Source of the DNA: an uncultured Bacteroidaceae bacterium
GTDB taxonomy: Bacteria > Bacteroidota > Bacteroidia > Bacteroidales > GCA-2748055
Assembly: GCA_964538375.1 (NCBI GenBank)
Contig: CAZIFQ010000002.1
Span: 3,434-67,433 of the forward strand
Reading direction: 5' to 3'
DNA length: 64,000 nucleotides
The notes below the pieces were generated by a model, which was not told where the DNA came from, made no database searches, and saw nothing but the letters and a program-made list of their open reading frames with translations. Made by a program: the position numbers and the translations under genes. Shown here one piece after another: positions 13,147 through 41,246 of this stretch. Each line of letters opens with the position of its first letter. The first letter of the stretch is position 1.

Positions 13147-13170
13147 AAATCAAAAATTCTTCTTCAATCT

Positions 13171-17364: not shown

Positions 17365-17412
17365 TTTAGAAGTTCTACATTTATTGAAAAGCTATAAAGA
17401 ATCGATCTACTT

Positions 17413-17451: not shown

Positions 17452-17493
17452 GGGGTGGTTATAGGGGTAAACGTCACCTCATGTGTGATATAG

Positions 17494-21158: not shown

Positions 21159-21159
21159 T

Positions 21160-23445: not shown

Positions 23446-23486
23446 GAAAGCTGACCAAATAAGTTCATCCAAAAAAGCGATCCTTG

Positions 23487-23517
23487 GGGAGGCTGTGCAA
23501 ACAGTCTCCCTTTTTTT
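23487..23517. terminator. Rho-independent-type terminator between convergent genes
   Basis: GGGAGGCTGT-GCAA-ACAGTCTCCC (one mismatch) is followed by TTTTTTT. It sits after the lipoprotein gene and abuts the stop of the minus-strand YhhQ-like gene. Confidence 0.65.
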
Positions 23518-24334: not shown

Positions 24335-24609
24335 AATTTAATGTTTGTGGGTTTGATTTCTTAAAATTATTAAAATATTTAACATATGAAACTAGTTTTT
24401 GTTGAATAGCAGAAAAATTAATGGATTAAAATCAATAATCTGATGCTTTTGTAAATGCTAGAGTGTATTAAAATATTTAGTTTGAGGCCTGTTTTTTATT
24501 TGAATTTTCTTAAATTACTCCATTAATTCAGCCGGAGGAGTTTTTTTCCGGGTTATTTAGTGTGGATAAAGTTTATATTTTGTCCTATAAAAATGCCTAA
24601 ATCTAAAGT

Positions 24610-27600
24610 ATGGCTCTTAACATTGCCAAGGCTCTGAATATTGAAAAACAGGAGCGAAGCGTTGTTTTTTTATTACTAACTCAATCGGTTTTCCTTGGAG
24701 TTTTCGCAGGGGCACTTGATGTTGGTGCTAATGCATTGTTTCTTGAGAAATATAGTGCAGATCTGATTCCCCAGGCATTTACATTATCGGGAATAGTGGG
24801 AATTATTTTTACTTCCATGTATGCATTCTTGCAGAAGAAAATCCCATTTAAATTCTTTACTATAATCAATCTTTTTGTGGCTATAGCATGCATGGCTGCA
24901 TTGCGTTTTGGATTTTCTTACATAGAAGCAGATTGGCTGGCATTTGCTGTATTTGTTATGATGGGACCAATTATTATTATAAGTATGCTTGGTTTTTGGG
25001 GTACAGCAGGAAGGTATTTTACCTTAAGGGAAGGGAAAAGATTATTTGGTATTATAGATACCGGATCTGTGGTAGGAATGATCCTTGTATTTTATGCTGT
25101 ACCGGTTTTAATGCAGTTTAACTTCGAGGTTTACAATACCCTCATGATTGGATTGGTAAGTCTGATTGCTGCGTTGTTGTTTCAGCTTATACTTGTCAGG
25201 AAACACAAATTTCTGGCCATTGCAAAAAAGGATACTTCGGAAAAAAAGAAACGAACTGGCTTTTTTAGCTTATTCAGGAAAAGGTATACTTCCCTGATGG
25301 CCCTTTTTGTTGTAATGAGTGTAATAACTGCATTTTTTATTCATTACTCCTTTATGTGGGCCACTGAAGCAAATTATTCTGACAGCAAGGAATTAACAGG
25401 ATTTATTGGTGCGTTTTTTGGTACAATGATGATTTTTACGGTGATCATTAAGAGTACACTATATGGATGGTTAATGAAAAACTATGGCTTGCGTGTGGCG
25501 CTGCTCATCTCCCCTGCCCTGCTTCTTATTCTTACTGTGATTGCTGCACTGGTAGGTGGTATATTTGGATACACTGCAGAAGCAGCTAGTTTTACTTTGT
25601 TCTTCCTGGTGATATCTCTTTCAAAACTCTTTAACAAATCATTGAAGGATGCCATCGAAAGCCCTTCGATGAAGATTCTTTATCAATCTCTTGATTCAAG
25701 CGAAAGATATGATATCCAGGCCAGAATTGACGGTATCGTAAATGAGATGACTGCATTTACTGCGGGCCTGCTGATGGCCGGATTGCTGATGATAAGTTTT
25801 GTAAAGGTTATTCACTTCTCATATATCCTAATTGCTATCCTTTTCTTTTGGGTAATATTAGGCGTGTGGTTATATAAGTCATACAGGAAAACCCTGAATG
25901 ATTCCCTGGCTTCTGCCCGATCATCAGTTAAAAGTACCGATGAGGAAAAAGAGACGGAACTTCCTTCCCTATCTCAAATACCAAATTATAATGAATGGAT
26001 AAAGTTAAATCCTTACTTCTATCATGTTGTTTCAGAAAGAGAAATGGATGGAATGCTTGAGAATTCCAATATCGATATTCAGATGTTGGGTTGGGAGGTC
26101 ATATCCAATACACTTTATTCCCTTAAAGAAAGTGAAGTGAAAAAGATTAAGGACAAGACAAAAAACAAGGAACTGATTGGCTTGATAGATAATTATCTGA
26201 GAAGGAACCACCTTTCAAATAAAGACATTGATGCTGCATTTCGTTCGACGGATAAAAATGAGATTTTTGCAGCTCTTGTTCAGACTGCGGTCAAAAAGGA
26301 AAAAGAGCATGTTCCTCATATAATTTCACTTCTAAGAGACAGGGACCTAATCCTTAGATCTGCCGCTATAGAAACTGCAGGGCTGTTGAATGCCAGGGAA
26401 CTTGGGGGCTATCTGGTCGATTATCTGGGTCATCCTAGTTTATATGCTATTACATGGTCATCTCTTGTAAAAATGGGAGAGGGTATCCTGGAGAACCTGG
26501 AGAATGCTTTTCATAAGACTGGAGCCCCGGAGAAAGTACAACAGAGAATTATCTCTGCTATGATTGCCATTGGGGGTGAAAAAGTGAATGAATACCTCTT
26601 TACAAAAATCAACTATCACCAGCGATTCATTCGTGAGGCAGCTATACAGGGTTTATATAAGAATGATTTTAAGGCAAATGAGCAGCAGATTCCAATTCTT
26701 CAATCAGTTATTTATGATGCTGCACTCGCAGGATCATGGACCATGACTGCAGAATTTGTTGTTCACGAAAATAATCCTGAAAATGGTTTATTAGAGGCCA
26801 TTAGTGAAGAAATGCAGCAGATCAATGAATTGCTATTTACTCTCCTTGCAATTACTTATGACAAGCACGCCATCGATCATGTGAAAAGTAGCTTGATGGA
26901 TGCTGAAAATGAAGACACAGGTTTCGCAATTGAATTGTTAAATCTGATTGTTGATGACCAGGTTTATGCGTATCTCGAGCCATATTTTGAGCAGATGGCA
27001 GTGCCTGATAAGGTAAGGAAACTTCAGAATGAAATGCCGGTGGAAATCTTGCCGTATGAGACACTCTTGACTGATCTGATAAGTCGTGATAGTTTGTATA
27101 GCGGAAATTATCCAAGACTATGTGCTATTAATGCCATCGGCATGAACAATGAACTGGATGCAAGCACCGAACTGGCGGCACAGGTTTTTCATCCACACGA
27201 GATTCTCAGCGATTCTGCCTTTACAATTTTGTCCATGAAGAATGAAGAATTATCGAAGGACATTGCTTCCCGTTTTCCTGAGGAGAGGATTGATACTTTT
27301 GGAATGAATGGTGATCAAAAAGGAATGCACCTCCTGATGATAATTGTAGACACCTTGAAAAAATGGCCTGCCTTTTCATCTGTGAAATTGGAGACCTTGT
27401 TTCTGTTTGCAAAGAACTTTGTGATTTCCAGGGAAGCAGATTTTGCTGACAAGAAACTGGTATCCTTTGTGCATTCTGATATGCCTGGTTTACCTGGATC
27501 GTTGAAGCACGGTTTGACGGTTTATGCTGCAGACTATCACGGATTAGACAATCAGTTCACAGAGATGATGAATCAGAAAGAGCTTGCTGTATTTCAGATT

Positions 27601-27714
27601 GACAAAGATATTTTTCGGGAGTTGGTGTTTGACAATCGGGATTTACTGGATGCATTTACTAGTATGTGTCTAAAAGATAGCATAGAGCAAATATTTATTA
27701 AACAAGAAGACTAA
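24610..27714 (+). CDS. Fusion protein: N-terminal ~440-aa polytopic MFS/ATP:ADP-antiporter(TLC)-like transporter domain, HEAT-type repeats, and a degenerate cNMP-binding-like C-terminus
   Basis: 1034 aa with about 12 predicted TM helices in the first 440 aa. HEAT-like helical repeats follow (LLRDRDLILRSAAIETAGLL..., REAAIQGLYKN). The C-terminal segment (...ELAVFQIDKDIFRELVFDNRDLLDAF) resembles the end of a cNMP-binding domain, but FGE/RSA motifs are not visible. Confidence 0.6.
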   Translation: MALNIAKALNIEKQERSVVFLLLTQSVFLGVFAGALDVGANALFLEKYSADLIPQAFTLSGIVGIIFTSMYAFLQKKIPFKFFTIINLFVAIACMAALRFGFSYIEADWLAFAVFVMMGPIIIISMLGFWGTAGRYFTLREGKRLFGIIDTGSVVGMILVFYAVPVLMQFNFEVYNTLMIGLVSLIAALLFQLILVRKHKFLAIAKKDTSEKKKRTGFFSLFRKRYTSLMALFVVMSVITAFFIHYSFMWATEANYSDSKELTGFIGAFFGTMMIFTVIIKSTLYGWLMKNYGLRVALLISPALLLILTVIAALVGGIFGYTAEAASFTLFFLVISLSKLFNKSLKDAIESPSMKILYQSLDSSERYDIQARIDGIVNEMTAFTAGLLMAGLLMISFVKVIHFSYILIAILFFWVILGVWLYKSYRKTLNDSLASARSSVKSTDEEKETELPSLSQIPNYNEWIKLNPYFYHVVSEREMDGMLENSNIDIQMLGWEVISNTLYSLKESEVKKIKDKTKNKELIGLIDNYLRRNHLSNKDIDAAFRSTDKNEIFAALVQTAVKKEKEHVPHIISLLRDRDLILRSAAIETAGLLNARELGGYLVDYLGHPSLYAITWSSLVKMGEGILENLENAFHKTGAPEKVQQRIISAMIAIGGEKVNEYLFTKINYHQRFIREAAIQGLYKNDFKANEQQIPILQSVIYDAALAGSWTMTAEFVVHENNPENGLLEAISEEMQQINELLFTLLAITYDKHAIDHVKSSLMDAENEDTGFAIELLNLIVDDQVYAYLEPYFEQMAVPDKVRKLQNEMPVEILPYETLLTDLISRDSLYSGNYPRLCAINAIGMNNELDASTELAAQVFHPHEILSDSAFTILSMKNEELSKDIASRFPEERIDTFGMNGDQKGMHLLMIIVDTLKKWPAFSSVKLETLFLFAKNFVISREADFADKKLVSFVHSDMPGLPGSLKHGLTVYAADYHGLDNQFTEMMNQKELAVFQIDKDIFRELVFDNRDLLDAFTSMCLKDSIEQIFIKQED

Positions 27715-27725
27715 AACTAAGCGGT

Positions 27726-29750
27726 TTGGATAAAAGAACAACCATATTTAAGCAATTGATTCTGAATGTAGTTATTCCGGCTATCCTGGCGATGATGGCA
27801 TTGGGTATTATTAATGTTCAACAAACCTGGAGCATATTGTCTGAGTCCAGTGAGAATAAAAGCACAATTATCAGCGAAGAGATCCGTCAGATTCATGAAT
27901 TGCAGGATATGGCCATGCGGATACTTGAACAACAGATAGATCCTATTCTTGAATTCAATAGTAAGAGACTTGTAAATGAGGTGTTTAGAACATCAAAAGA
28001 AATTGAATCTGCAAATTTAGATGATATCCGATTAGAATTAGGCATGAATCCTGCTCATGAGGATATATACATAATCAACCGTGAAGGGGTAGTAGTGAAC
28101 TCCACTTTTGAAAAGGACCTGGGATTGAATTTATTTGCATTTGGAGAGGAACACAGGGAAATGCTTGAAGCAGTCTGGCATAATGATAAATTCATAAGCG
28201 AAAAGTTCACCATTGAAAATTCAACCAGGCGCTTAAAGAAATTTACCTATATCCCTACCCTGGATGGAGAATACCTTATTGAGCTGGGTATTTATTCAGC
28301 TAAAGCCGATAGTATCATCGATTTTGTTAAGGAACGTATGAATACAATGTCTTCAGGACAAAAGAATATTATATCGGTTCACCTTTTTATTAGTAAGGAA
28401 AATCCTATTCCATTAAATGGAGAAGGACAAATTGAAGATGAATACCTTGATGTATATCAGAATGTGATGGAGACACATGAGAGGCAAACAATTGATGACA
28501 GAAGTTCAAAACCTCCTGTAAGAAGGGATTACATCTTTATGGACAGGCAGAACACCAGTTTGTATAAGGAGTCAGTAATAAGGATCATCTCTGATACAAG
28601 TGAAGAGATTTCTGTTGTTAGAAGAGAGCTGTTCAAATTTCTTCTCATTTTTCTTGTTACAGTAGTAATTGTCATCATTCTTCTTTACAGGAAAACAAAA
28701 GTTATTACAGATCCGATAAAGAATCTTGTATCGAATGTAAACAGAATTACAGCAGGTCATTTGCATGAGCGTGCTGATGTGATTGGTAATAATGAAATCA
28801 CTTCACTCTCTGAGCAATTCAATGAAATGATTGCCCAGCTGGAGAGTTACTATAATGAATTGGAAGAGAAGGTTCGGGTACGTACAGCTGAAGTTGTTGC
28901 TCAGAAAGAAGAGATTGAAGCACAGAGAGATACTTTGCAGGAACAACGGAATATGCTGGAAAAAGTGAACGAATCCCTGCAGAAAGCATATACTGAGATT
29001 GAGGATAGCATTCACTACGCAAGCAGGATTCAAAATGCAATACTTCCGCCGGATGATTATCTGAAAAGGGTAATTCCAAACGCAGTGTTCTTCTATAAGC
29101 CAAGGGATATTGTGAGTGGTGACTTCTATTGGGTAGCAGCGAAAGACGATAAGGTGATTATTGCAGCAGTTGACTGTACCGGTCATGGTGTTCCTGGTGC
29201 TTTCATGTCAATTGTAGGTAATAATACCCTGAACTATGCATTGAATGTCAAGAATGCTACCCAGCCATCAAAAATTCTTGCCTACCTCGACCAGGGAGTC
29301 TCTGATACGCTTCGTCAAACCCAGAGTGAGTCATCAGTCCATGATGGAATGGACCTGGCTATGGTTACCATTGACAAGAAGACCGGAATATTACAATATT
29401 CTGGTGCGTTTAACCCGCTAATATTGATTCGTGACGGGGAAGTAGAGAAGATTAAGGCAGATCGAACTGCTATTGGAGGTCATATTGTAAAAGAGAAAAA
29501 GAGTTTCACAAATCATGAATTTGAGTATAAAAAAGGAGATGTAATTTACATGTATTCTGATGGGTATGCAGACCAGTTTGGGGGAGAAAAGGGTAAAAAG
29601 TATATGTCAGGGAAATTTGTAAAATTCCTGCAAAGTATTCATCATCTGTCACTTGAGGAGCAATATGAAAAGCTTGATCATGAATTGATTAACTGGAGAG
29701 GAGAGGAACCGCAAATAGATGATATACTTGTCATTGGTGTGAAATTTTAG
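27726..29750 (+). CDS. Membrane sensor PP2C/SpoIIE-family Ser/Thr phosphatase (TM, ~270-aa extracytoplasmic domain, TM, HAMP, coiled coil, PP2C)
   Basis: 674 aa with two TM helices (res ~10-30 and ~300-320) and a HAMP-like linker (DPIKNLVSNVNRITAGHL...LSEQFNEMI). PP2C motifs are VSGDFYWV, DCTGHGVPGA, YSDGYADQ and IDDILVIGVKF. The listed start is TTG, and no in-frame ATG precedes the first TM. Confidence 0.8.
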   Translation: MDKRTTIFKQLILNVVIPAILAMMALGIINVQQTWSILSESSENKSTIISEEIRQIHELQDMAMRILEQQIDPILEFNSKRLVNEVFRTSKEIESANLDDIRLELGMNPAHEDIYIINREGVVVNSTFEKDLGLNLFAFGEEHREMLEAVWHNDKFISEKFTIENSTRRLKKFTYIPTLDGEYLIELGIYSAKADSIIDFVKERMNTMSSGQKNIISVHLFISKENPIPLNGEGQIEDEYLDVYQNVMETHERQTIDDRSSKPPVRRDYIFMDRQNTSLYKESVIRIISDTSEEISVVRRELFKFLLIFLVTVVIVIILLYRKTKVITDPIKNLVSNVNRITAGHLHERADVIGNNEITSLSEQFNEMIAQLESYYNELEEKVRVRTAEVVAQKEEIEAQRDTLQEQRNMLEKVNESLQKAYTEIEDSIHYASRIQNAILPPDDYLKRVIPNAVFFYKPRDIVSGDFYWVAAKDDKVIIAAVDCTGHGVPGAFMSIVGNNTLNYALNVKNATQPSKILAYLDQGVSDTLRQTQSESSVHDGMDLAMVTIDKKTGILQYSGAFNPLILIRDGEVEKIKADRTAIGGHIVKEKKSFTNHEFEYKKGDVIYMYSDGYADQFGGEKGKKYMSGKFVKFLQSIHHLSLEEQYEKLDHELINWRGEEPQIDDILVIGVKF

Positions 29751-29770
29751 AATAGTTTAATCTATATAAT

Positions 29771-32700
29771 ATGAGTGATATGCCGTCATCTGTCGGAAAA
29801 ACAGGGACCAATTTTAATCCTTTTCCGGGTTTGCGCCCTTTTACACAGGATGAATCTCACTTGTTTTTTGGGAGGGAAGGGCAGAGTAAATCTGTTCTTA
29901 ACTCTTTAGAAAACAATAGGTTTGTTGCGGTAATTGGTGCTTCCGGAAGTGGAAAATCTTCGTTAATTTATTGCGGAGTTGTCCCTGAGCTAGAAAAGCA
30001 GTCTTCAAAAAAATGGATTACGGTAACAACAAGGCCGGGATCGACACCGTTGAAAAACCTTGTCGAATCTTTTTCTGCAGCTTTTCCTGGAAAGTTTGAA
30101 GCAAAGGATGAAGAAGCCCTCCTGGATGGAAATCTAAAACTGCAAGATTGGCTAAAAGGGAAGAAGCTTGGAGACCAATCTTTGTTGCTTATAGTAGACC
30201 AGTTTGAAGAGATCTTCAGATTTACAGGAGCAGGTGCTGCTGAAGACCTGGTAACCCAGATTAACCGATTCGTTGATTTGATCTATAGCGGATCAATATC
30301 TGAATCTATGCCTATATTCATCGTTCTGACTATGCGCTCAGACTTTATTGGAGAATGTGCCATATTTCAAAACCTGACAGAATTAATAAATAAGAGCAAC
30401 TACCTGATACCTCAAATGACAAGGGATGACTTCAGGAATGCCATTGAGGGGCCAATTGGTATTGGTGGTGCCAGCATTGATTCCGAGCTTCTTGAGCAAT
30501 TGCTGGATGAGGTTGGTAATAATACTGATCAATTGCCCGTACTTCAGCACTCTCTTATGCGTACATGGGAATACTGGAAACTACAAAACGACTCCAATAA
30601 ACCAATCTCTATCGGTGACTATGAGGCCATCGGAAGGATGGAAAAAGCCCTTTCAGATCATGCCAATGAGGCATATGATGAACTCAACGAAAACCAGCGG
30701 GTAATCTGCGAGAATATCTTCAAAACACTTACAGAAAAGGGAGGAGACAACAGGGGAGTACGACGCCCTAACCTTGTTAAAAAAGTGGCGGAGATTTCTA
30801 AATGTACTGTTGAGGAGATCGTGGAAATCGCTGAACTGTTCAGGACAAAAGGTAGAACATTTCTTACCCCATACAAGCCGGTTGAAATTACTGAGGATAC
30901 CACCATTGACATTTCTCATGAATCGCTTATGCGAATTTGGGACCGCTTGCGTCTATGGGTTGATGAAGAGGCATCTTCGGTGCATATGTACAGCAGGTTG
31001 TCTGAGGCATCAGAGCTATACCAGGAGGGAAAAACAGGATTGTGGAGACCACCGGATCTTCAATTGGCTTTAAACTGGCGTAATAAACAAAAGCCCAGTG
31101 CTACCTGGGGTGTCCAATATAATCCTGCCTTTGAGAGGTCAATGGTTTATCTAGACACAAGTGATAAGGAATTTAAGAAAGAAGAAGAAAATAAAATACG
31201 TTTGCAGCGAAGGCGGCTGAAGATAACCAGGTCGTTTGCCCTTGTACTGGGTGGAATTGCGGTTTTGGCTATGGGATTGTTCCTTTGGACGAGGGACCTG
31301 CAGAGCCAGGCGGAAAAATCAGCTGCTGATGCCCTTGCATCGGAGGCTATTGCCACTACAAAGAGTGAGGAAGCTGAAAGACAGAGAATCCTGGCTGATT
31401 CAGCAGCTGCTAATGCAATACAGCAACAGATGTTCGCAGAAGTCGCAAGAAATGAAGCAGATACTGCCAAGGAAGAAGCCCTTGTTGCCCTGGAAGAGGC
31501 AAATTACCAGCGAGCCCAGGCCCTGAGAAATCAGCAGGAGGCAAGAAGACAGGAGAGAATAGCTGTGGCGAATGAAAAAACTGCCAATGAGGAGAGAATA
31601 GCGGCTGAAGAAGCACGTGAGGATGCAAACAAAAGGAGAATGCTCTCTATCGCCAAATCAATGGCGGTGAAGTCATTGACCATTGCTGACGATCCTGATT
31701 TGCAGGCACTCCTTGCTTACCAGGCATATAATTACAATGTTGAGTTTGGCGGGCCTATGCATGAAGCAGATATTTATGCCGGATTGTATAGCGCCAGGAA
31801 GACTTTGCTTGGTGATCAATACAATGTGTATGGAGGGCATACCCAGTCCATTTATGGATTGGTGTTCCATCCATCGAAAAATGAATTTTACACAGCAGGA
31901 ACAGACGGTCAGTTACTTAAATGGTCACTGGCTGATACCTCGAAATCTTTTGAAGTGCTTTCTCAAACTCCGGTCTTGCTAAAAGCACTCTCAATAAGTG
32001 CAGATGGTGAGAAATTGGCAGTGGGTACTGACCGGAACGGTATTATGATTTATGAAACTGAGAATCCTTCGAAGTTGCCGTTAAAACTTAACGGGCATGA
32101 TGGGATCATTCGTGACCTGGAGTTCGCTGCCAGCGGTGAGTTGTTTTCAATCGGGATAGATAAGCAAATATTGAAATGGAATATTTCAAGGAATTCTTCG
32201 GAAGTCTTTTCCAGCTCCGAATTCAGGTACAATGATATTTCTGTTTCCCCTGATAGTCAGATTATTTGTGCATGTGACAGATCTGGTAACATCTACGTGA
32301 TCTCTAAGTTTGACCCTGCAGAACCTGTCATTATTCCCGGAACAGAAGCGAATGTCACTTTTTCACTTGATTTCAGCAACGACGGCAAGTTCCTGGCAGC
32401 AGGAGATGGCAACAATAATGTTAGAATTTTTGACACAGAAGATTGGAAGGAAATCAATAGTTTAAGAGGGAACAAAGCCAGGGTCGTAGATGTGAAATTT
32501 AGTCCGCGCAGTAACTACCTCGCTTCTACAGGAAATAATGGACAGGTATTGATGTGGGAAATGGCAGATCTTAACAGTTCTCCATTTGTGATGGAAGATA
32601 ATGAGGGACGCGCACTTGCAGTTGACTTTAGCCCTGATGAAAAAATAATGGTGAGTGGAAGTAGCGAGGGAAGCAGGTTAATTGCCAGACCCGTTCGTGC

Positions 32701-32827
32701 CGACCTGCTGATAGAAGGGTTTTGTTCTATGATAAACAGGAATTTTACAAAGGAAGAGTGGGATGTGTATGTTGGTGTTGATATTCCCTATTCAGAAACA
32801 TGTCCGCTTTTAGTAACAGAAAACTAA
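29771..32827 (+). CDS. STAND-type P-loop NTPase (nSTAND/NACHT-like), single TM helix, Ala/Glu-rich coiled coil, WD40 beta-propeller
   Basis: 1018 aa. N-terminal NPFPGLRPFTQDESHLFFGRE, Walker A GASGSGKSS and Walker B LLLIVDQFEE. The helical/winged-helix region includes HESLMRIWDRLRLWVDEE. A hydrophobic helix FALVLGGIAVLAMGLFLW is encoded at nt ~31234-31290. Multiple WD-type repeats follow (HTQSIYGLVFHP...LLKW, HDGIIRDLEF...ILKW, ...VRIFD, ...VLMWE). Confidence 0.8.
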   Translation: MSDMPSSVGKTGTNFNPFPGLRPFTQDESHLFFGREGQSKSVLNSLENNRFVAVIGASGSGKSSLIYCGVVPELEKQSSKKWITVTTRPGSTPLKNLVESFSAAFPGKFEAKDEEALLDGNLKLQDWLKGKKLGDQSLLLIVDQFEEIFRFTGAGAAEDLVTQINRFVDLIYSGSISESMPIFIVLTMRSDFIGECAIFQNLTELINKSNYLIPQMTRDDFRNAIEGPIGIGGASIDSELLEQLLDEVGNNTDQLPVLQHSLMRTWEYWKLQNDSNKPISIGDYEAIGRMEKALSDHANEAYDELNENQRVICENIFKTLTEKGGDNRGVRRPNLVKKVAEISKCTVEEIVEIAELFRTKGRTFLTPYKPVEITEDTTIDISHESLMRIWDRLRLWVDEEASSVHMYSRLSEASELYQEGKTGLWRPPDLQLALNWRNKQKPSATWGVQYNPAFERSMVYLDTSDKEFKKEEENKIRLQRRRLKITRSFALVLGGIAVLAMGLFLWTRDLQSQAEKSAADALASEAIATTKSEEAERQRILADSAAANAIQQQMFAEVARNEADTAKEEALVALEEANYQRAQALRNQQEARRQERIAVANEKTANEERIAAEEAREDANKRRMLSIAKSMAVKSLTIADDPDLQALLAYQAYNYNVEFGGPMHEADIYAGLYSARKTLLGDQYNVYGGHTQSIYGLVFHPSKNEFYTAGTDGQLLKWSLADTSKSFEVLSQTPVLLKALSISADGEKLAVGTDRNGIMIYETENPSKLPLKLNGHDGIIRDLEFAASGELFSIGIDKQILKWNISRNSSEVFSSSEFRYNDISVSPDSQIICACDRSGNIYVISKFDPAEPVIIPGTEANVTFSLDFSNDGKFLAAGDGNNNVRIFDTEDWKEINSLRGNKARVVDVKFSPRSNYLASTGNNGQVLMWEMADLNSSPFVMEDNEGRALAVDFSPDEKIMVSGSSEGSRLIARPVRADLLIEGFCSMINRNFTKEEWDVYVGVDIPYSETCPLLVTEN

Positions 32828-32833
32828 GCTCCA

Positions 32834-33901
32834 ATGAGAAAATTTATACTTATTCTTACAATTGCTGCTTTCTCAGTCAATATGATGGCTCAACAGGAGT
32901 GCGCTTTCGTATTGCAGGAAGCTCAGGAGATGTTTGATGCCGGATTGATCGAAACCATTCCTGATAAATTGGCGGGATGTCTGAAAACCGGTTTTACAAA
33001 TGAGGAACTCCTACAGGCCCACAAGTTAATTGTTCTCTCATACCTGTTTGATGATAATGTAGAGATGGCAGATGAATCCATGCTGAAATTCCTGACCGAC
33101 TTTCCGTCATATGAACCAGTAGCTACTGACCCAAGAGAGTTTGTTGCGCTGATGGAAACCTATAATACTGATCCTGTTTTGATGCTTGGAGTTGGTGTAG
33201 GTGCTAATTTCTCATTCCCGATTATGAGAGAAGAGATGGGAGTACATAACAATTTGCTTCATGGCGGAAATCTTGCTCCCGGTGGTGCGGGATTTCATGG
33301 GAGTTTTATGGTTGAGAGGGAATTAATTCAAAATCTTAACCTGTTGGGTGAGCTGGGTGTTGCTAATATTTTATATGATACCTACCTGGATGATGAAAGT
33401 GAAATAATAGAACCATCCGCAGAGATAACCGATTTTTCAATTATCGAATACTACGAAACTCAAACCCAGATAAGGTTACCAATAAGCGTGTCATATAATT
33501 TTACTGAAACGGATTTTAAACCTTATGTGAGGGTAGGAATTGTTCCAGCTATCTTGCTTGTTGCCAAGGCGGAAGCAAACAGATCATACATCAACACAGG
33601 TAACACTTATCTTGACCCACTGGAAGTTGCCAATGTAGATATTATGAACGGCAGAAGATTTATTAACCTTTGGGCTTTTGCTGGTGCTGGCTTTAATTAT
33701 AAGCTCGGACCGGGAAATTTTTTCCTCGACCTGAGGTATTATATGAATTTGCTCAACCAGGTAAAGCCGGGTAGCGATCCATTTATGTTTCCGGACCTTA
33801 CATTTAAAATTTATTATGCAAACGATGAGTTCTTCCTGAATAATTTAACTGTTACGGCCGGTTATATGTTTCCTCTTTACAGACCTAAAAAGAAAGACTA
33901 A
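32834..33901 (+). CDS. Putative outer-membrane beta-barrel protein with N-terminal helical (TPR-like) segment
   Basis: 355 aa with signal peptide MRKFILILTIAAFSVNMMAQ. About 90 aa of helical region are followed by a Gly/aromatic beta-strand pattern. The gap from the upstream gene is 6 nt. Confidence 0.5.
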   Translation: MRKFILILTIAAFSVNMMAQQECAFVLQEAQEMFDAGLIETIPDKLAGCLKTGFTNEELLQAHKLIVLSYLFDDNVEMADESMLKFLTDFPSYEPVATDPREFVALMETYNTDPVLMLGVGVGANFSFPIMREEMGVHNNLLHGGNLAPGGAGFHGSFMVERELIQNLNLLGELGVANILYDTYLDDESEIIEPSAEITDFSIIEYYETQTQIRLPISVSYNFTETDFKPYVRVGIVPAILLVAKAEANRSYINTGNTYLDPLEVANVDIMNGRRFINLWAFAGAGFNYKLGPGNFFLDLRYYMNLLNQVKPGSDPFMFPDLTFKIYYANDEFFLNNLTVTAGYMFPLYRPKKKD

Positions 33902-33905
33902 TAAG

Positions 33906-35099
33906 ATGAAAAAGACATTTCAGTATATGGGCGTTTTTCTGCTTGCAATCTTTCTGAATTCTTGCTCAGAAGGATTGTCAGACTACCAGAAAAAATCATT
34001 TATAAAATTTTATGGCAGTTACCAGACAGATATTGGGAAAGATGTAGTGCCATTGTCCGGAGGGGGGTATGCCTTGACTGGATGTATGATCCCGGATTCA
34101 ATTCCTCAAATGTTTCTGATTATCACAGATGAATTCGGCAATCAGACCGAGAATTCACCAAATTATTACGGAGGTGAGTTGGCATCATCTGGGAATAGTA
34201 TTCTTGAGATTGACGATGGAGGATTCCTTATAGCAGGAGAAATTTCTGACACATTAGGCATGGGTATTGATGTCTTCATTGTTAAAACAGACGCTTCCGG
34301 TGAAGTAATATGGTCTGAAACATACGGAGGAGCAAACAAGCAAACTGCGGCACATATTATTAAACGCAACAGTGGGGGATATGTCATTGCAGGAAAGTCG
34401 GAAGTAAATAATGGTGTTAAGCTGCAGGAGGACCTTTGGATTATCATGATTGATAGTGACGGAAACAAGATATCCGAATTTACCGGTAACAACCAGGAAG
34501 AGGATGATGAGGCGTGTTTTATTCATAATACAGGAACAAGCTATCTAGTGGCTTGTACCTATAATGATGGTGCTTTTGAGGGGAAAGATAATATGGTTCT
34601 GAACCTTGATGAGAATTGTAACCTGTTTGATGCAATAGCCATGGGGACTGACTTCGATGACTTTGCAAAAAGTATTGTAGTCTATAATGGGGCCTATCTT
34701 CTGATGGGAAATTCAGATAATACAGTCAGAGGATATGATGAAATTGGCCTCTATACATTTTCTCTCGAAGGAAATTTGATCAAAAATGCAACGAAGATTG
34801 CAACCATTTTTGAATCAAAAATAGACTTTACAGGAGAGGCTTGTGTTATTAGCTCTAATGGAAACATTGCTGTGGTTGGTGACAGGTATGAAGTTAACAA
34901 TGACATCAGAAGTATGCTACTGCAATTTGTTGACGGTTCAACCATTGGTGAGCAAGTTCTTTTTGGCCAGGAAGGGGTCCAGTCAGGATATGGCATAAAG
35001 AAAACGCTCGATGGTGGATTAGTCCTCGTTGGATCGAATGGTCTGGGAGGAAATAGTGTAGTATCTCTTGTTAAAACAGACGCAAAGGGAGCATTTTAG
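33906..35099 (+). CDS. Lipoprotein with ~7 propeller-like repeats
   Basis: 397 aa with lipobox FLNSC. A recurring motif is seen: SGGGYALTG, DDGGFLIAG, NSGGYVIAG, YNGAYLLMG, GNIAVVG, LDGGLVLVG. The gap from the upstream gene is 4 nt. Confidence 0.5.
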   Translation: MKKTFQYMGVFLLAIFLNSCSEGLSDYQKKSFIKFYGSYQTDIGKDVVPLSGGGYALTGCMIPDSIPQMFLIITDEFGNQTENSPNYYGGELASSGNSILEIDDGGFLIAGEISDTLGMGIDVFIVKTDASGEVIWSETYGGANKQTAAHIIKRNSGGYVIAGKSEVNNGVKLQEDLWIIMIDSDGNKISEFTGNNQEEDDEACFIHNTGTSYLVACTYNDGAFEGKDNMVLNLDENCNLFDAIAMGTDFDDFAKSIVVYNGAYLLMGNSDNTVRGYDEIGLYTFSLEGNLIKNATKIATIFESKIDFTGEACVISSNGNIAVVGDRYEVNNDIRSMLLQFVDGSTIGEQVLFGQEGVQSGYGIKKTLDGGLVLVGSNGLGGNSVVSLVKTDAKGAF

Positions 35100-35123
35100 T
35101 AAAAAATAAAAAAACATATACCC

Positions 35124-38100
35124 ATGAGAACCAGGTTAAAAAGTTTCCTGCTATTTGCTTTACTGGGAATTACTTCGGCGTCTTTTGGCCAAAGTGCCAC
35201 GTGGACAAAGGATTTTAACAACGAATCAGAAGTCAGGAATAGTACAGACTATGAAATTGTTGTTGTATTGACTGATGAAACATTTAGCGCCACAGTTGAA
35301 AGTGTCGATGGCGATGCTGCAGACCTGGTAGACGGAATGTCTGGCTTTAGTACAGCCTGGGATAACGTATTGGGCTCCATTAATGCCGCTGATATAACTC
35401 TATCTGCGGCAAATTCAGTTGCTACAATACGAATTGAGCAAGAGCTTGCTTATTATCTTATAGAAAATGATTCCATTGGATTTCTAATACCTGCTGGTTC
35501 TCTGACAGGGACTGGGGTGATCCAATTGCCTGATAGTCTAATTATCAATAACCAGGAAACAAGCGTTAGCTTTAGCGGGACTTTATCTGGTGGCGTGGAT
35601 GAATCAGACATCAGGAATGGTGACAATACTTTAATCTTAACACTTACAAACAACAAATGGGGGGCTGCTGATGCTGCTGCATTAAGTATTGTAAAGTCCA
35701 TGTTCTCAGTGTCAGGGGGCTCGGAATTTGCAGGACAAGTCAGTGCCCTGTCAGTTGGCGATCTGGGCTTGAACGGTAGTTCAGATGTTTTGACCATTAT
35801 ATTCGATGAAGATGACAACTTCTATATTCCAGCAACAGAAACTGTATCTGTTGAAGCACGACAGACCTTGCTACAATACAGCGAGAAATATGCTGACTCA
35901 TTAGCGACTTTTGATGTTAGTAATGAGGTTCCGGTGATAGCTATTTCAGACTCGACAATCACTGAATACACAATTAAACATGAAGCTGTATCTTTCCTGA
36001 TAACATTATCTGGAGATATTTGGGAAGAGCCACTTGACGCGAATTTTAAAGATCAAATTTCAAGTGGCGGAGCATGGGATGCAATTATCAGAAATGATTT
36101 AACTATTCTAAGAGTAAATGATACTTTGATTAAGGTTACCACTCCTATTAAGCTAACTTATGAAATTTCTTCGAATGAAACAGTTGAAATCAGTATTGAC
36201 CCGATTAATCTGGCAAATACTACTGGCGCCAATATTGATGCTACCGGTACGAAAACAATTGCTGCGTCGCCGGCAGGATTAACTCCTGGAGGTACTTTTG
36301 CAACTACGCTTAGTGAGGGTGATCTCAGGACTGCCCCTGGCTATGTCATTGAATTGAGCATTTCAGAGGATACATGGATTGCTACTATTTCTGATCCTGC
36401 GAACCGTGATGCGCTTATTAACAGCATCACCAGTTCCCCTGCAGATGCTGGGTTTACAGCTCTTATTAGTGCCATCATTGCAGAGGGTGATGTTGTTCGC
36501 TCGGGAGATGGAACAAAAGTTACCATTGCCGTACCGGTGATAAGCGATTTTGACATCACACAAAGTATTGATTTAAGCTTTACTGATGTGCTTGGAACGC
36601 TTTTTGAGACAACTTCAACAGACCTTTCAACTGGTGTTTTTACAACAATTGAGCGCATAAAACCTTATATCGTTATCACCACAGATCCGCCATCACCATT
36701 GTTAGAACCAGAAGTAAATGATGCAATACTAATCGTCAACCTGTATGAGGATACTTTTAACAGTACATTCAATGATGGGAACTTTACCTTTACACCTGAT
36801 CCGGGAGTCCCTACTGAACTTAAAGTGGATCCATCATCTGCCTATACACTTATTGGGGATGATTCACTGAGAATTGGTATCAGATTAGACGGGAATATTA
36901 CTGTGGGTTTTGATTTTGGATTAGAGATTGACGCAAATGAATTACCCGGAACTGATAATGTTGAAAATAAACCAGGTAATGTTATTGGAGTCTCCGCTCT
37001 AGTTTTACCCGTAATTAACTCAGTATCGATTCTTAATGATTCTATGAAAATTGGAGATTACGTAGAGATTACAATTATTATTGATAAGGCAGGTAGTGAT
37101 ATTGATTATACCAGTGGAACTGTTGCTGATCGTATTCTTACTGATTTTGAACAAGTATCAGCTTTTGAATATCATGCCTACTTCACAGTTCTTGAGGGTA
37201 CGACTGAATATTTTGCAGGTGATGATATCCCAGTCACAAATCTGATATTAAACAATATGGGTTATGACGGGGACTCATTTACTGATTTGATTGAGCAGGC
37301 AAATGACCCTATCGATACAGATTATCCGGTAGTCGATCTTATAAGTTTTAACAATGGGGAATATAAAATTGGTGAGCAGGTAACAGCTGTTATCCATGCA
37401 ACAGAGATTGGTCTGAAATTTGATAAAGATTTGACCAAGATCAATACCATACCGCTCAGTGCTGTTAATGTAACAAGCAATGAGTCAGGATCAGGGATCT
37501 ACCAGTTATATTACACTGTTGCTAGCACAAACCCAGATCTTTTCTCAGGAGATATTGCTGTAGATGTTGTAATGAAAGATTCTGTTGGCAATGAAAATTC
37601 TGTATACCAAACAATTTCCGGCACCAGTCCTAAAATCGATGCACACTACCCTGTTATTACTTCGGCTTCGGTAAGTACAACTGGAGTGAAAAAACCCGGC
37701 GATATTATCGAAATAGATATTTTATCTACCGAAATCATACATAAGCTGGGAGCTGGTTCTCACGTGAATAATGTGTCAGCTAGTGGCGGAGGCCCGGGAG
37801 ATGGAGTAATAAATATGGTAAGTAATTTGGATAATACTTATACATTGACTTATACCGTTGGATCGGAGGATGATGAGGTTGAAAACCCCGGCGAGATGGA
37901 AGTGCTTATCATTTTGGAAGATGAATTTGGCAATCAAACTCAAATCACTACCCTGGATCTGGTTGTAAATAATGTTGAGATAGTAACTTCAGGACCAATT
38001 GCACAGATCTTCGGTGGCGGAGATGTATGTCCGGGAGAGTCAGTTGAAGTATTTGTCACCTTATCTGGAGAGCCCCCATTTGCGCTCAAAATTAAGGAAA

Positions 38101-41100
38101 ATCCTACCGGCACGGAAGTGGATCATGTTGCGCCAACAACAAATTATAGCTTCATAGCGAGTCCTTCAGGGGCTGGAGATTTTGAGTACACTGTTACTGA
38201 GGTGATAGATAATTTAGGTCTTACTGGTACGTCTTCAGGAGTGGCACATGTAGAACGCCATCCTACTCCAGATGTAAGCATAACCAATACTAGAGAACAA
38301 TACCAGATAACTGAGGATTCAATACTTTTAACTGCAAATAAAGGTCCCGGGTTATTTACCGGACCCGGAGTAGTTACTTCTGAAAAGTTGTTTTACCCGA
38401 AAGTGGCAGGTCTCTCAACTGCCCCACATCATACGATCTACTATGATTACACAGATACAATCACAGGATGCACAGCACAGGATATAATAATTTTTGAAGT
38501 AGTTGATGCGGAGGCAAATATAACCTTTTCAGATACAAAACTTTGTTACAATGATCCGGAAATGACGGTTACCGGAAATAATTTATCAGGTGAAGGTGGA
38601 CCAGGTACATTCACTTTATATGAATATTTGAATGGGGGTCATTATTATATTCCAGAAGGAGAGGGAATTACTGGTGGTACTATTGCCGATGACAATGCGG
38701 TTATTTCACCTGGCAGTCTTGAAGGCGGAGAATACCGGGTGTATTATTGGTATAATTATCTCGACTCAATACCTTCATATATCTTTGAAACCTTCACACT
38801 TGAAAAGATTCCTGAAGTTGAATTCTTAAAGCCGGCGGATCATGACATTCTCAAGAGCAATAGCTTTGAAGTTTGTAACGATTGGGGTGCACTTGAACTT
38901 AAAACAAATCTGGATGCTTCCTATCCAGGTATCTATACCATAGGTCCAGATACTATGGAATATAATATTAATGATGATAGATGGTATTTTGTTCCCAGTA
39001 CAGCTAATACAGGGTATCTGACAATCAATTATGAAGTGACTTCTGAAGGTGAGTGTACGCAATCGGACTCATTTAGTTTTTATAATTATCCGGTTCCAAC
39101 GGTTGACTTCAATCCACTAGCGATCTGTATACCAGAAAACGGGGGTCCAATCGAATTTGAAAATTTTACAAGTGATGATGATTTGGTTAGTGAGTATCGA
39201 TGGGAGTTTGATGATTTAAATAGTGCTGACAGGAACACGGACACCGTCTACAACAATGATAATTATGTGCATCGTTTTTCTGCTCCTGCTCAACGTAACG
39301 TTAGCCTGGAAGTGCTTACAACTTCAGGGTGTATTGCCAAGCATAGCTCCCTCATAGATTTTGGAGATCGTCCGGTGGCATCATTCACCTGGGTGAGTGA
39401 CTGTTGGCTGGCTGATGACATGGTAGCAATTCAAAATGAGTCAACAACTGAAACACCATGGAAAGATTTCCATTGGGACTTTTATGATATAGACGGCCAT
39501 GACACCATATTGCTCACCTCAGTTGACTCATTAGCAAATGATAATGTAGTTCCTCTGAATACAGATTATGAATTTGAGGAGGAAGGAAAATATTTGATAA
39601 GATTGATTGTTAATAATAACCTGGATTGTTCAGATGACACAGTTAGGGTGATATCACTGAAGCCGACTATTCCTCTTATGAATTCAGATGAGCCTTATTT
39701 TGATGATCTTGATGATTACCTGACAGATGATCCGAGAAAATGGTCTGAAGAAGCAGAGTCAGGCTATGGTACATCAGTATGGAAGCAAGGAGAAATTAAC
39801 CATGAATTTGCATTAGATGATGGTATGCCATCAGATGAGAACATTGGTTGGTATACAGATTTGATATACAAACAGCCTACCAGGTCGTGGATCCAGAGTC
39901 CGTGTTTTGATTTTTCCGGGACTGAACGACCAATGATTCGGCTCAATATAGCAGGAAGTTTTGAGAGTTATCGTGATGGGGCTGTTTTGCAGTATACACT
40001 TAATGATGGAGTGGATTGGACAACCCTGGGTAATACTACTGATGGAATCAATTGGTATAATTCTTTTGAAATTATTGAGACCCCGGGTGGTGGGAATGGT
40101 ACGAGTATAGGATGGTCTGGAGATGTCGATGGAGTAGATGAAGAATGGGTCACTGCTGCTTTTGATCTGGATGATTTAATAGACCAGAGTGGAGTAATAT
40201 TTGGGCTTTTCTATGCGACATCGGGTTCTGTAAAAGAATATAATGAAGGTTTTGCTGCTGATAATATCTATATTGGAGAAAGAACAAAGCGGGCATTGAT
40301 AGAGCATTTTACTAACTCTGGTTCAGCTAATGCAATTAGTGCAGATGATGCTATAGATAACTTCACCTCTGCCAATAGCCTGGATGTAACGAATCTGCAA
40401 TACCATATGCATTATCCTTTTGAAGATCCTATGAATGAGAATAACTCTTCACCTGGATCCTCCAGGGCATTCTACTATGGCGTTTCACAGGTTCCATATG
40501 CCTTGATGGACGGTGGAACTGATGCTACCTACAAGTATGATTTTAGCCCGTCAACTCCTACTGCAATTAGCCTGAAAGAACTTACGCTTGATGTTCCTCT
40601 TTTTGCGATGGACATTACTTATAAGTTACATGCCAGCAGGTTAGCAACCAAGGTGGAGGTTAAGGCATTGAGTGATATTGATTCAACTGATGTCATATTG
40701 TATGTAGCGGTTATTGAGAAAACAATGGATAAATTCACTGAAATAATAAATGGAGATACAGAATTTAAAAATGTAGTGATGGCCTTGCTGCCAAGTACTG
40801 CTGGTCAGCTTTATTCAAGGGGATGGGGTATAGACGAAACAGTGAGCGAACAGTACAGCTGGACATACAAGGGAGAAGAAGATAAGAGTGAATTAATGGT
40901 AGTTGCTTTTTTACAGGACAGGCAGACCAATAAGGTGCTGCAAGTGACATCAAACGATGTGCCTGAATTTGGGGTGGGAGAAGTTTTGCATCAATTAGAT
41001 GCAATACATATTTACCCAAATCCTGCAAGAGATCTTCTGTACGTTGAATTCGCAGAAGCTACAACTGGTGAAGGTATAATTGAGATAACAGACATGACAG

Positions 41101-41246
41101 GTCGTGTTGTAATGATCTCAGAAATATATGACAGGGAGGGAGTTATAAAACTGGACATTAGCTTGTTACTGGATGGTTCATACATACTTCAAATAAAGGA
41201 GAATGGGAATATAAGAAGCAGGACAAACTTTATAAAGGTGAGATAG
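35124..41246 (+). CDS. Giant (2040-aa) secreted multidomain surface protein with T9SS type-A C-terminal sorting domain
   Basis: Has a signal peptide and long Ig/PKD-like repetitive beta regions. A MAM/LamG-like region occurs near WYTDL...SPCFDFSG...GWSGD. A thioredoxin-fold/Omp28-like segment is ALIEHFTNSGSANA. The C-terminus IYPNPARDLLYVEF...GSYILQIKENGNIRSRTNFIKVR is a typical T9SS CTD. Confidence 0.8.
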   Translation: MRTRLKSFLLFALLGITSASFGQSATWTKDFNNESEVRNSTDYEIVVVLTDETFSATVESVDGDAADLVDGMSGFSTAWDNVLGSINAADITLSAANSVATIRIEQELAYYLIENDSIGFLIPAGSLTGTGVIQLPDSLIINNQETSVSFSGTLSGGVDESDIRNGDNTLILTLTNNKWGAADAAALSIVKSMFSVSGGSEFAGQVSALSVGDLGLNGSSDVLTIIFDEDDNFYIPATETVSVEARQTLLQYSEKYADSLATFDVSNEVPVIAISDSTITEYTIKHEAVSFLITLSGDIWEEPLDANFKDQISSGGAWDAIIRNDLTILRVNDTLIKVTTPIKLTYEISSNETVEISIDPINLANTTGANIDATGTKTIAASPAGLTPGGTFATTLSEGDLRTAPGYVIELSISEDTWIATISDPANRDALINSITSSPADAGFTALISAIIAEGDVVRSGDGTKVTIAVPVISDFDITQSIDLSFTDVLGTLFETTSTDLSTGVFTTIERIKPYIVITTDPPSPLLEPEVNDAILIVNLYEDTFNSTFNDGNFTFTPDPGVPTELKVDPSSAYTLIGDDSLRIGIRLDGNITVGFDFGLEIDANELPGTDNVENKPGNVIGVSALVLPVINSVSILNDSMKIGDYVEITIIIDKAGSDIDYTSGTVADRILTDFEQVSAFEYHAYFTVLEGTTEYFAGDDIPVTNLILNNMGYDGDSFTDLIEQANDPIDTDYPVVDLISFNNGEYKIGEQVTAVIHATEIGLKFDKDLTKINTIPLSAVNVTSNESGSGIYQLYYTVASTNPDLFSGDIAVDVVMKDSVGNENSVYQTISGTSPKIDAHYPVITSASVSTTGVKKPGDIIEIDILSTEIIHKLGAGSHVNNVSASGGGPGDGVINMVSNLDNTYTLTYTVGSEDDEVENPGEMEVLIILEDEFGNQTQITTLDLVVNNVEIVTSGPIAQIFGGGDVCPGESVEVFVTLSGEPPFALKIKENPTGTEVDHVAPTTNYSFIASPSGAGDFEYTVTEVIDNLGLTGTSSGVAHVERHPTPDVSITNTREQYQITEDSILLTANKGPGLFTGPGVVTSEKLFYPKVAGLSTAPHHTIYYDYTDTITGCTAQDIIIFEVVDAEANITFSDTKLCYNDPEMTVTGNNLSGEGGPGTFTLYEYLNGGHYYIPEGEGITGGTIADDNAVISPGSLEGGEYRVYYWYNYLDSIPSYIFETFTLEKIPEVEFLKPADHDILKSNSFEVCNDWGALELKTNLDASYPGIYTIGPDTMEYNINDDRWYFVPSTANTGYLTINYEVTSEGECTQSDSFSFYNYPVPTVDFNPLAICIPENGGPIEFENFTSDDDLVSEYRWEFDDLNSADRNTDTVYNNDNYVHRFSAPAQRNVSLEVLTTSGCIAKHSSLIDFGDRPVASFTWVSDCWLADDMVAIQNESTTETPWKDFHWDFYDIDGHDTILLTSVDSLANDNVVPLNTDYEFEEEGKYLIRLIVNNNLDCSDDTVRVISLKPTIPLMNSDEPYFDDLDDYLTDDPRKWSEEAESGYGTSVWKQGEINHEFALDDGMPSDENIGWYTDLIYKQPTRSWIQSPCFDFSGTERPMIRLNIAGSFESYRDGAVLQYTLNDGVDWTTLGNTTDGINWYNSFEIIETPGGGNGTSIGWSGDVDGVDEEWVTAAFDLDDLIDQSGVIFGLFYATSGSVKEYNEGFAADNIYIGERTKRALIEHFTNSGSANAISADDAIDNFTSANSLDVTNLQYHMHYPFEDPMNENNSSPGSSRAFYYGVSQVPYALMDGGTDATYKYDFSPSTPTAISLKELTLDVPLFAMDITYKLHASRLATKVEVKALSDIDSTDVILYVAVIEKTMDKFTEIINGDTEFKNVVMALLPSTAGQLYSRGWGIDETVSEQYSWTYKGEEDKSELMVVAFLQDRQTNKVLQVTSNDVPEFGVGEVLHQLDAIHIYPNPARDLLYVEFAEATTGEGIIEITDMTGRVVMISEIYDREGVIKLDISLLLDGSYILQIKENGNIRSRTNFIKVR

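Follow-up and report, generated by a model that had tools for sequence, protein, structure and literature searches.

Here we describe a cluster of six genes (g1 to g6) in a 64,000-nucleotide (nt) stretch of DNA, the window, from contig CAZIFQ010000002.1 of an uncultured Bacteroidaceae bacterium. The genes encode, in order, an NTT-HEAT membrane protein, a HAMP-PP2C sensor phosphatase, a protein in which an nSTAND1 NTPase is joined through a transmembrane (TM) helix to a WD40 propeller, an outer-membrane barrel, a propeller lipoprotein and a 2040-amino acid (aa) type IX secretion system (T9SS) cargo (Table 1). On comparative genomic evidence, the cluster represents one copy of a Bacteroidota cassette that is widespread but undescribed and has g3-g4-g5-g6 as its invariant core.

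Gene layout and conservation of the cassette

The six open reading frames (ORFs) lie on the + strand with spacers of 11, 20, 6, 4 and 24 nt, and none of the five gene junctions contains a terminator-like hairpin. A convergent flavodiiron-like gene has its stop codon at 41248, 1 nt past the stop of g6. This layout had been reported in a preliminary description of the locus and was reproduced when the coordinates were recomputed; its six domain calls were also correct, as judged from Pfam and NCBIfam matches, TM predictions and AlphaFold2 (AF2) models of g4 and g5. The start codon of g2 is TTG, in agreement with the orthologue start MEKRTTIF. From the gene spacing, the cluster is likely transcribed as a single unit, and gene junctions overlap in orthologues.

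Table 1. Genes, domains and other features of the window
Feature	Position	Strand	Basis or remark
g1, NTT-HEAT protein	24610-27714	+	ORF
g1 NTT-like membrane domain (nucleotide-transporter-type, ~12 TM), inner membrane	~24652-25884	+	PDB match
g1 HEAT solenoid, cytoplasmic	~26047-27249	+	HEAT_2
g1 degenerate tail, like a cyclic nucleotide (cNMP)-binding domain	~27307-27669	+	Alignment to homologue
g2, HAMP-PP2C sensor phosphatase	27726-29750	+	ORF
g2 periplasmic domain, ~270 aa, between TM1 and TM2	27813-28628	+	TM prediction
g2 HAMP	28701-28844	+	39.2 bits
g2 PP2C/SpoIIE (PF07228), after coiled coil	29145-29744	+	78.7 bits, cutoff 25
g3, nSTAND1-TM-WD40	29771-32827	+	ORF
g3 nSTAND1 NTPase, cytoplasmic	29819-31030	+	PF20703
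g3 TM helix, residues ~488-507	31232-31291	+	TM prediction
g3 spacer, 115 aa, Ala/Glu/Lys/Gln-rich	31292-31636	+	Composition
g3 WD40 propeller with Cys-Cys tail, predicted periplasmic	31637-32824	+	WD40 repeats
g4, outer-membrane barrel	32834-33901	+	ORF
g4 helical domain, periplasmic, residues 22-107, after signal peptide	32897-33154	+	AF2 model
g4 small beta-barrel, residues 114-349	33173-33880	+	AF2 model
g5, lipoprotein (signal peptide with lipobox Cys20), seven- or eight-bladed beta-propeller	33906-35099	+	ORF; AF2 model
g6, 2040-aa T9SS cargo	35124-41246	+	ORF
g6 fast-evolving N-terminal ~1250 aa, no recognised domains	35124-38891	+	Comparison
g6 basal module (PKD, jelly-roll and Omp28-like domains)	38892-41003	+	PKD_4 and Omp28 matches
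g6 type A T9SS C-terminal domain (CTD)	41010-41237	+	TIGR04183, PF18962
Divergent promoter region, Vut_1 gene (-) / g1	24335-24609		275 nt, non-coding
FecR anti-sigma-like protein	17494-18501	+	Unit upstream of cluster
TonB-dependent receptor	18501-21158	+	CarbopepD_reg_2 and Plug domains; unit upstream of cluster
DUF4249 protein	21160-22032	+	Unit upstream of cluster

Within the Bacteroidales lineage of the window, relatives retain the six genes together with both flanks (Vut_1; ODP-flavodoxin, PSD, CdsA and FtsH), and collinearity there is uninformative because the flanks are conserved as well. A search of genome contigs with a g4 alignment gave at least seven loci, six of them from this lineage with identical flanks, and the position of the cassette among housekeeping genes is stable in at least nine genomes.

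The cassette also occurs in other genomes and between other neighbours. Cultured Fulvivirga imtechensis (locus L020) carries a g1-like gene, a gene for a TIR+DUF4062 protein, g3, g4, g5 and a gene for a 4604-aa T9SS protein. Cultured Aureibacter tunicatorum (L018) carries genes for a 3231-aa T9SS protein, a g1-like protein, g3 and g4, followed in the g5 position by a 390-aa gene that has no BLAST match to g5. In L022, flanked by sigma-54 and ECH genes, the order is g1 (with a cNMP-binding domain, cNBD), TIR/DUF4062, g3, g4, g5 and T9SS cargo, and in L025, flanked by topoisomerase and shikimate kinase genes, it is g1, HAMP-PP2C, g3, g4, g5 and a g6-like N-terminus. Two loci from metagenome-assembled genomes (L007 and L021) hold g3, g4 and g5 with nothing recognisable upstream. 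Directly 3' of the gene in the g5 position, Aureibacter encodes a 1494-aa protein (12500-16984 of L018) with the contractile-injection-system tape-measure domain CIS_TMP (E 3e-90).

Metagenome loci were taken from the best 80 of 121 matches in a scan with the g4 alignment and annotated with hidden Markov models built from cassette loci. The 80 loci represent 68, 42 and 20 clusters at 90, 70 and 50% g4 identity, respectively. Directly 5' of g4 lies g3 in 72 of 73 evaluable loci, and directly 3' lies g5 in 71 of 71; g5 is followed by a long same-strand ORF with a signal peptide in 21 of 21. All ten complete ORFs in that position (933-2041 aa) contain the g6 basal module and a T9SS CTD. The preliminary description had posed the question of whether homologues would be syntenic or scattered; they are syntenic in these loci and across at least five flanking contexts, and the arrangement is found again in dozens of genomic contexts with no relation to one another.

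The genes upstream of g3 are more variable. Among 24 evaluable loci, 12 have g1-TIR in this position, three have g1-PP2C-TIR (L034, L045 and L091), one has g1-PP2C, three have g1 alone, one has TIR with g1 out of reach and four have neither g1, TIR nor PP2C, giving totals of 19 for g1, 16 for TIR+DUF4062 and four for a g2-type PP2C. Since three loci hold both PP2C and TIR/DUF4062, the two enzymes are not simple alternatives. In some loci the enzyme gene directly 5' of g3 overlaps the g3 start by 4 nt. Ten cassettes carry neither enzyme, with nothing recognisable upstream (L007, L021, L043, L047, L055 and L095) or with g1 alone (L018, L092, L097 and L099). The six-gene unit proposed earlier thus stands as a conserved, co-directional, tightly spaced block but not as an invariant set, being constant only from g3 to g6. 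The TIR/DUF4062 gene that usually lies directly 5' of g3 is missing from the window; this gene appears to have been lost, or never gained, in the window's lineage.

These counts bear on a reading in which the genes are neighbours and form no system, g1-g2 and g3-g6 being independent units or all six genes being unrelated. The absence of g1 upstream of g3 in 4 of the 24 loci, the confinement of g2 to four, the wide occurrence of NTT-HEAT fusions in bacteria without the cassette (PMC5381601) and the uninformative collinearity within the window's lineage all speak for it. We regard it as very improbable, as g1 homologues adjoin the core in most evaluable loci and also do so between different flanks in each of Fulvivirga, Aureibacter, L022 and L025; in addition, the adjacencies within the core are nearly without exception, and spacers of 4-24 nt are too short for regulatory elements. 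For the core, this reading is already largely refuted. Support for functional linkage is as strong as comparative genomics can give for g3-g6 and slightly weaker for g1.

Proteins of the core and of the variable upstream part

The nSTAND1 NTPase of g3 (PF20703, 311.2 bits against a cutoff of 27.1) spans residues 17-420, corresponding to positions 1-374 of the 379 in the profile. It begins at residue 17, and no effector or effector-associated domain (EAD) is fused to its N-terminus. In 39 full-length g3 homologues, the Walker A/B residues (G56, G61, K62, S/T63, D143 and E146) are invariant and the single TM helix is always kept. This helix is preceded by the basic stretch KIRLQRRRLK, which fits an N-in orientation; as the ATPase must face the cytoplasm, membrane topology logic would place the WD40 propeller in the periplasm. 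An oxidising compartment also fits the conserved cysteine pairs, C985/C1011 in the post-propeller tail of g3 (kept in 37 of the 39) and C23 and C49 in the helical domain of g4 (invariant in 72 sequences).

Between the TM helix and the propeller, the spacer measures 102-145 aa across the 39 homologues (median 121) and is of two classes, either Pro-free with 53-72% A/E/K/Q/R (helical) or Pro/Ser/Thr-rich. The Pro-free class is found in cassettes with TIR and/or PP2C, and the Pro/Ser/Thr-rich class in cassettes without either, with Aureibacter as the sole exception. Fixed length and free composition are as expected of a periplasm-spanning tether comparable to TolA or TonB, and the spacer fits such a role. 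A PDB sequence search with the nSTAND1 module gave no match. Named relatives of g3 come from Cyclobacteriaceae, Fulvivirga, Ohtaekwangia, Chryseosolibacter, Ekhidna and Bacteroidales. The NCBI and JGI names of g3 relatives ('High-affnity carbon uptake protein Hat/HatR', 'EcfA2' and 'ABC transporter ATP-binding protein') are legacy or P-loop-driven misnomers for nSTAND1-WD40 proteins.

The AF2 model of g4 (pLDDT 92) combines a helical domain with a small barrel for which Foldseek returns OmpA, OmpW, Ail, OmpX and Pla at probability 1.0. The protein scores 23.8 bits against PF13568 (OMP_b-brl_2, cutoff 27), with many homologues above the cutoff, and the g4 family comprises at least 1061 clusters (50% identity) that match at E<=1e-30. 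No NCBIfam model matches g4, and some homologues carry the NCBI name 'PorT family protein'; assignment to PorP/SprF was rejected, as neither Pfam nor NCBIfam gave a match. The lipoprotein g5 has no Pfam family, and its AF2 model (pLDDT 93) is all-beta with ~30 strands. The best PDB match is the CylK propeller (TM 0.76), and BamB and the Bacteroides surface lipoprotein BtuG were matched too. Weak g5 matches in an archaeal-type context (L009/L010) were discarded as propeller-repeat similarity alone.

The N-terminus of g6 reads MRTRLKSFLLFALLGITSASFGQ and has a signal peptide, and the C-terminus matches TIGR04183 (46.6 bits, cutoff 23) and PF18962 (Por_Secre_tail, 41.5 bits against 27, residues 1963-2038 of 2040). 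By these features, g6 is a predicted T9SS type A cargo. Residues 1257-2030 align with the L022 cargo (27% identity, E 8e-69) and with the giant Aureibacter protein (26%, E 8e-40), the best-kept part of g6 being the jelly-roll region (residues ~1560-1800), while the N-terminal part aligns only among close lineages and with L025. Among orthologues, identity is highest for g2 (72-84%) and lowest for g6 (35-46%), with g1 (54-75%), g3 (57-69%), g4 (44-74%) and g5 (43-63%) in between; the flanking genes show 70-85%. This pattern fits a g6 protein composed of a conserved base, the ~750-aa module, and a variable exposed portion.

In g1, at least ten helices are strongly hydrophobic, and the only solved relatives are NTT-type ADP/ATP carriers (9j3j (NTT1), E 8e-11; another at 1e-7). 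The MFS_1 score (32 bits) lies just below the cutoff of 33.4, and one g1 orthologue gives a weak match to TLC. The HEAT_2 match is marginal in the window (27.8 bits against 27.7) and clear in the L022 homologue (62.6 bits). The cNMP-binding family PF00027 is present in the g1 homologues of L022 (40.4 bits), L020 and L018, but residues 880-1034 of the window g1 give no match to it even at E<=1; the tail aligns with the homologous domain with deletions in the beta-roll, and no functional cNMP-binding domain was detected. By domain content, g1 is a member of the NTT-HEAT(-cNBD) fusion family, which has been named but is uncharacterised (Major, Embley & Williams 2017, PMC5381601) and is widespread in bacteria that have no such cassette (PMC5381601). 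It shares with this family the NTT-like 12-TM domain and the HEAT solenoid, and its homologues in other cassettes end in the cNMP-binding domain, whereas in g1 itself the cNBD is degenerate. The g1 subfamily also differs in being tied to the STAND (signal transduction ATPase with numerous domains) cassette, a context not reported for the family.

The phosphatase g2 has TM helices at residues 11-29 and 302-320, and the PP2C motifs VDCTGHG, SDGYAD and IDD (metal-binding Asp motifs) were read by eye. It shares the TM-HAMP-coiled-coil-PP2C architecture of SiaA (Pseudomonas SiaABCD) and of the partner-switch phosphatases RsbU/SpoIIE. Its C-terminal 380 aa align with the SiaA model NF038263 (E 6e-76; residues 297-674), but the score of 256.3 bits is far below the equivalog cutoff of 700. 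On this score, and for lack of SiaB, SiaC or SiaD genes next to it, identification of g2 as SiaA was rejected. Its periplasmic domain is unrelated as well, no STAS/anti-sigma partners are encoded nearby, and the cluster, in which g2 stands between g1 and g3, contains no kinase, STAS or GGDEF gene.

A PDB sequence search with the TIR partner of the sister cassettes also gave no match. DUF4062 has been described as a TIR-like NADase acting in phage defence ('Swarozyc', bioRxiv 10.64898/2026.05.01.722283), and NWD1 and TEP1 have the architecture DUF4062-NACHT-WD40 (same source).

Control DNA and surroundings

The region upstream of g1 had been described as AT-rich and promoter-like, in keeping with its GC content of 24.7%, compared with 40.1% for both the cluster and the window. 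It contains a near-consensus Bacteroidota -7 box, TATATTTTG, at 24574-24582, ~28 nt 5' of the g1 ATG, and the box AATTTTGTATTTTG is kept 25-45 nt 5' of g1 in five of seven orthologous loci. Region-wide motif counts were at chance level for the Bacteroidota -7 motif TAnnTTTG (55 seen, 64 expected), for sigma-70-like sites (58 against 56.4±8.1 in shuffled sequence, with a model ill-suited to Bacteroidota) and for terminator-like sites (16 against 12.4±3.3 in shuffled sequence). A terminator-like hairpin with T-run in the g1 leader (24532-24551, +) was considered as a regulatory element and rejected, as it is not kept in orthologues; it is probably fortuitous, and no + strand gene lies upstream whose transcription it could terminate. 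A block of ~32 nt, CTTAAAATTATTAAAATATTT.ACA...GAAA (24359-24390), is near-invariant in the seven orthologous loci. It lies 25-56 nt 5' of the divergent Vut_1/YhhQ-like transporter gene and has no Rfam match, and from its position may be the promoter of that gene or a leader element. Scans of the window for tRNA genes and Rfam families gave no match.

A separate trans-envelope unit lies just upstream of the cluster (16747-22032, +), comprising the FecR, TonB-dependent receptor and DUF4249 genes and a 205-aa ORF that may be an extracytoplasmic function (ECF) sigma factor. It is followed by a 381-aa ORF (22300-23445, +) with no Pfam family at E<=1e-5. Of all terminator-like hairpins in the region, the strongest (23486-23511; 11 pairs, 6 GC) lies 3' of this ORF. 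Topoisomerase IV/gyrase A- and B-type subunits and Lon protease are encoded at 10276-15009 (-) and 55194-57641 (-), and these flanking housekeeping genes point to an ordinary chromosomal location. The GC content is even along the window, giving no sign of a recently acquired island.

Signalling, assembly and defence as possible roles

The earlier statement that this combination of genes matches no described system agrees with our searches. PADLOC-DB 2.0 gave only P-loop-level noise (mad3, E 1e-4, 32 residues), and nothing at all for g1, g4, g5, g6 or the TIR partners. No description of the cassette was found in the literature searched, which included the Aravind-lab surveys; as coverage was incomplete, this amounts to absence of evidence and no more. 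The domain families are all known, and what appears to be new is the trans-envelope arrangement of an NLR (nucleotide-binding, leucine-rich repeat)/STAND protein with dedicated outer-membrane and T9SS partners. STAND proteins that contain TM segments and have their sensor domains outside the cytoplasm have been mentioned in passing (PMC10907252).

One close comparison is with the conflict systems in which nSTAND1 was defined (Kaur et al. 2021, PMC8195603) and with antiviral STAND (Avs) proteins. With these, g3 shares the P-loop, intact Walker motifs and C-terminal WD40 repeats, and TIR-type enzymes partner it in sister cassettes. It differs in that its sensor would be periplasmic, with a TM helix and a ~120-aa spacer between it and the NTPase, and in that no effector is fused to it, the enzymes of sister loci being separate upstream genes. 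It is also obligately linked to the barrel, lipoprotein and cargo genes, in a cassette that occupies a fixed chromosomal site and has no PADLOC match. Sister cassettes show the domain logic of the eukaryotic NWD1/NWD2/TEP1 and the bacterial DUF4062 NADases in split form, whereas the window has no DUF4062 gene, its NTPase is nSTAND1 and not NACHT, and its WD40 repeats are predicted to be extracytoplasmic.

We propose that the cassette encodes an outside-in, trans-envelope, NLR-like signalling device with a periplasmic sensor, a model that in our view stands at about an even chance of being right. We start from what is observed, namely the linkage of the genes, their domain content, the g4 and g5 folds and membrane topology logic, and infer the physical contacts, signal direction, stimulus and cellular output of the device as follows. 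The basal module of g6 would associate with a g4/g5 complex at the outer membrane, and the periplasmic WD40 propeller of g3 would read the state of this complex through the helical domain of g4 and/or g5. The TM helix would couple this reading to the cytoplasmic STAND switch, which would change its nucleotide state and oligomerise, as other STAND/NLR proteins do, and then engage the enzymes encoded just upstream. In the window these would be the membrane-bound HAMP-PP2C g2 and the NTT-HEAT protein g1, and in most sister cassettes a TIR/DUF4062 NADase-like protein. Given the TIR/DUF4062 partners, the architecture of NWD1 and TEP1 and the definition of nSTAND1 in conflict systems, the sister cassettes resemble an NLR in split form with its sensor moved out to the periplasm. 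The TIR partners speak more for sensing of an NLR-like kind and for signalling of cell fate than for an assembly module that anchors a surface protein. As PP2C is present and no TIR gene occurs in the 64 kb, the output of the window copy is more likely to be phospho-signalling than NAD+ depletion.

Several points weigh against this proposal. The cNMP-binding domain of the window g1 is degenerate, the cluster encodes no substrate of the PP2C, and no TIR/DUF4062 gene occurs in the window. Ten cassettes have neither TIR nor PP2C and no effector is fused to g3, so the output does not have to pass via these enzymes. Anchoring of cargo with a type A CTD usually goes through A-type lipopolysaccharide (A-LPS), and no need of such cargo for a private barrel is known (PMC9143113). 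The counts across loci depend on a g4 match, with g3-like genes lacking g4 lying outside the survey, and sequence does not reveal in which direction information flows.

A bolder version of the signalling proposal, which we hold only tentatively and consider doubtful, is that the cassette is a bacterial NLR guarding the cell surface, a new outside-in immune or cell-fate pathway. The giant, fast-evolving T9SS protein would act as antenna or sentinel, and the barrel and lipoprotein would relay its state to the WD40 propeller. The STAND switch would then trigger NAD+ destruction (TIR/DUF4062) or phospho-signalling (PP2C), with NTT-HEAT-cNBD possibly acting as a nucleotide-transporter-like effector.

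Alternatively, the cassette might work inside-out as an assembly or anchoring machine, in which the STAND ATPase, aided by the NTT-HEAT protein, draws on cytoplasmic nucleotide to license, energise or position a giant adhesin's export, anchoring or movement through the propeller and the g4/g5 complex. It would then be a private T9SS accessory module, similar to PorP/SprF with SprB or to force transduction by TonB/TolA. The ten cassettes that keep g3-g6 without TIR or PP2C would suit such a machine, as would the constant adjacency of a cargo gene with a common basal module, the tether-like constancy of the g3 spacer length and the stable position of the locus among housekeeping genes in at least nine genomes. 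Cargo-specific outer-membrane barrels have a T9SS precedent (PMC9143113): a barrel gene adjoins a giant cargo gene both here and for PorP/SprF with type B cargo such as SprB. However, g4 is a small OMP_b-brl_2-like barrel to which a helical domain is added, and it has no PorP/SprF match; the g6 CTD is of type A (TIGR04183), for which no need of a private anchor is known; and the cassette has, in addition, a STAND ATPase in the inner membrane. The known roles of STAND NTPases are those of switches or oligomerisation platforms, not of motors, and the TIR/DUF4062 NADase-like gene of most cassettes is hard to fit with assembly; we consider the inside-out machine unlikely.

Analogues of envelope-spanning signalling or force transduction are provided by RcsF-OMP-IgaA, FecA-FecR and TonB/TolA. 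In these, as in the signalling proposal, an outer-membrane barrel and a lipoprotein talk to a single-pass inner-membrane protein via a long tether in the periplasm. The components are not homologous, and the cytoplasmic module here is a STAND NTPase and not an anti-sigma factor, phosphorelay or proton-driven motor.

A defensive role, abortive infection directed against phages or predators, is in our estimation quite unlikely. In this case g6, exposed and fast-evolving, would be a decoy or sentinel receptor, and g3, on sensing an attack on it, would trigger NAD+ depletion (TIR/DUF4062) or growth arrest, the window copy being a derivative that retains the PP2C branch alone. TIR+DUF4062 genes abut g3 in 16 of the 24 evaluable cassettes, DUF4062 NADases act in phage defence, nSTAND1 was defined in conflict systems (PMC8195603), and g6 is the fastest-evolving gene of the cassette, well below its flanking genes in identity. 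Against this, no PADLOC model matches the six proteins or the TIR partners, the window has no TIR gene, and ten cassettes have no recognisable effector. Moreover, the cassette occupies a fixed, vertically inherited housekeeping site across species, with a GC content equal to its surroundings, and does not lie in a mobile defence island.

The cassette provides a testable context for the orphan NTT-HEAT(-cNBD) transporters, unexplained since 2017, for stand-alone TIR+DUF4062 proteins and for a family of T9SS cargo that shares a conserved basal module. With Fulvivirga imtechensis and Aureibacter tunicatorum, and other Cytophagales by annotation, as cultured carriers, genetics, NADase assays and envelope biochemistry are feasible. 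STAND/NLR proteins are understood as cytosolic sensors, and a large family with a periplasmic sensor propeller would extend NLR logic to cell-surface surveillance. If the bolder, surface-guarding version of the proposal is true, this would be the first immune or cell-fate STAND receptor to be wired across the inner and outer membranes.

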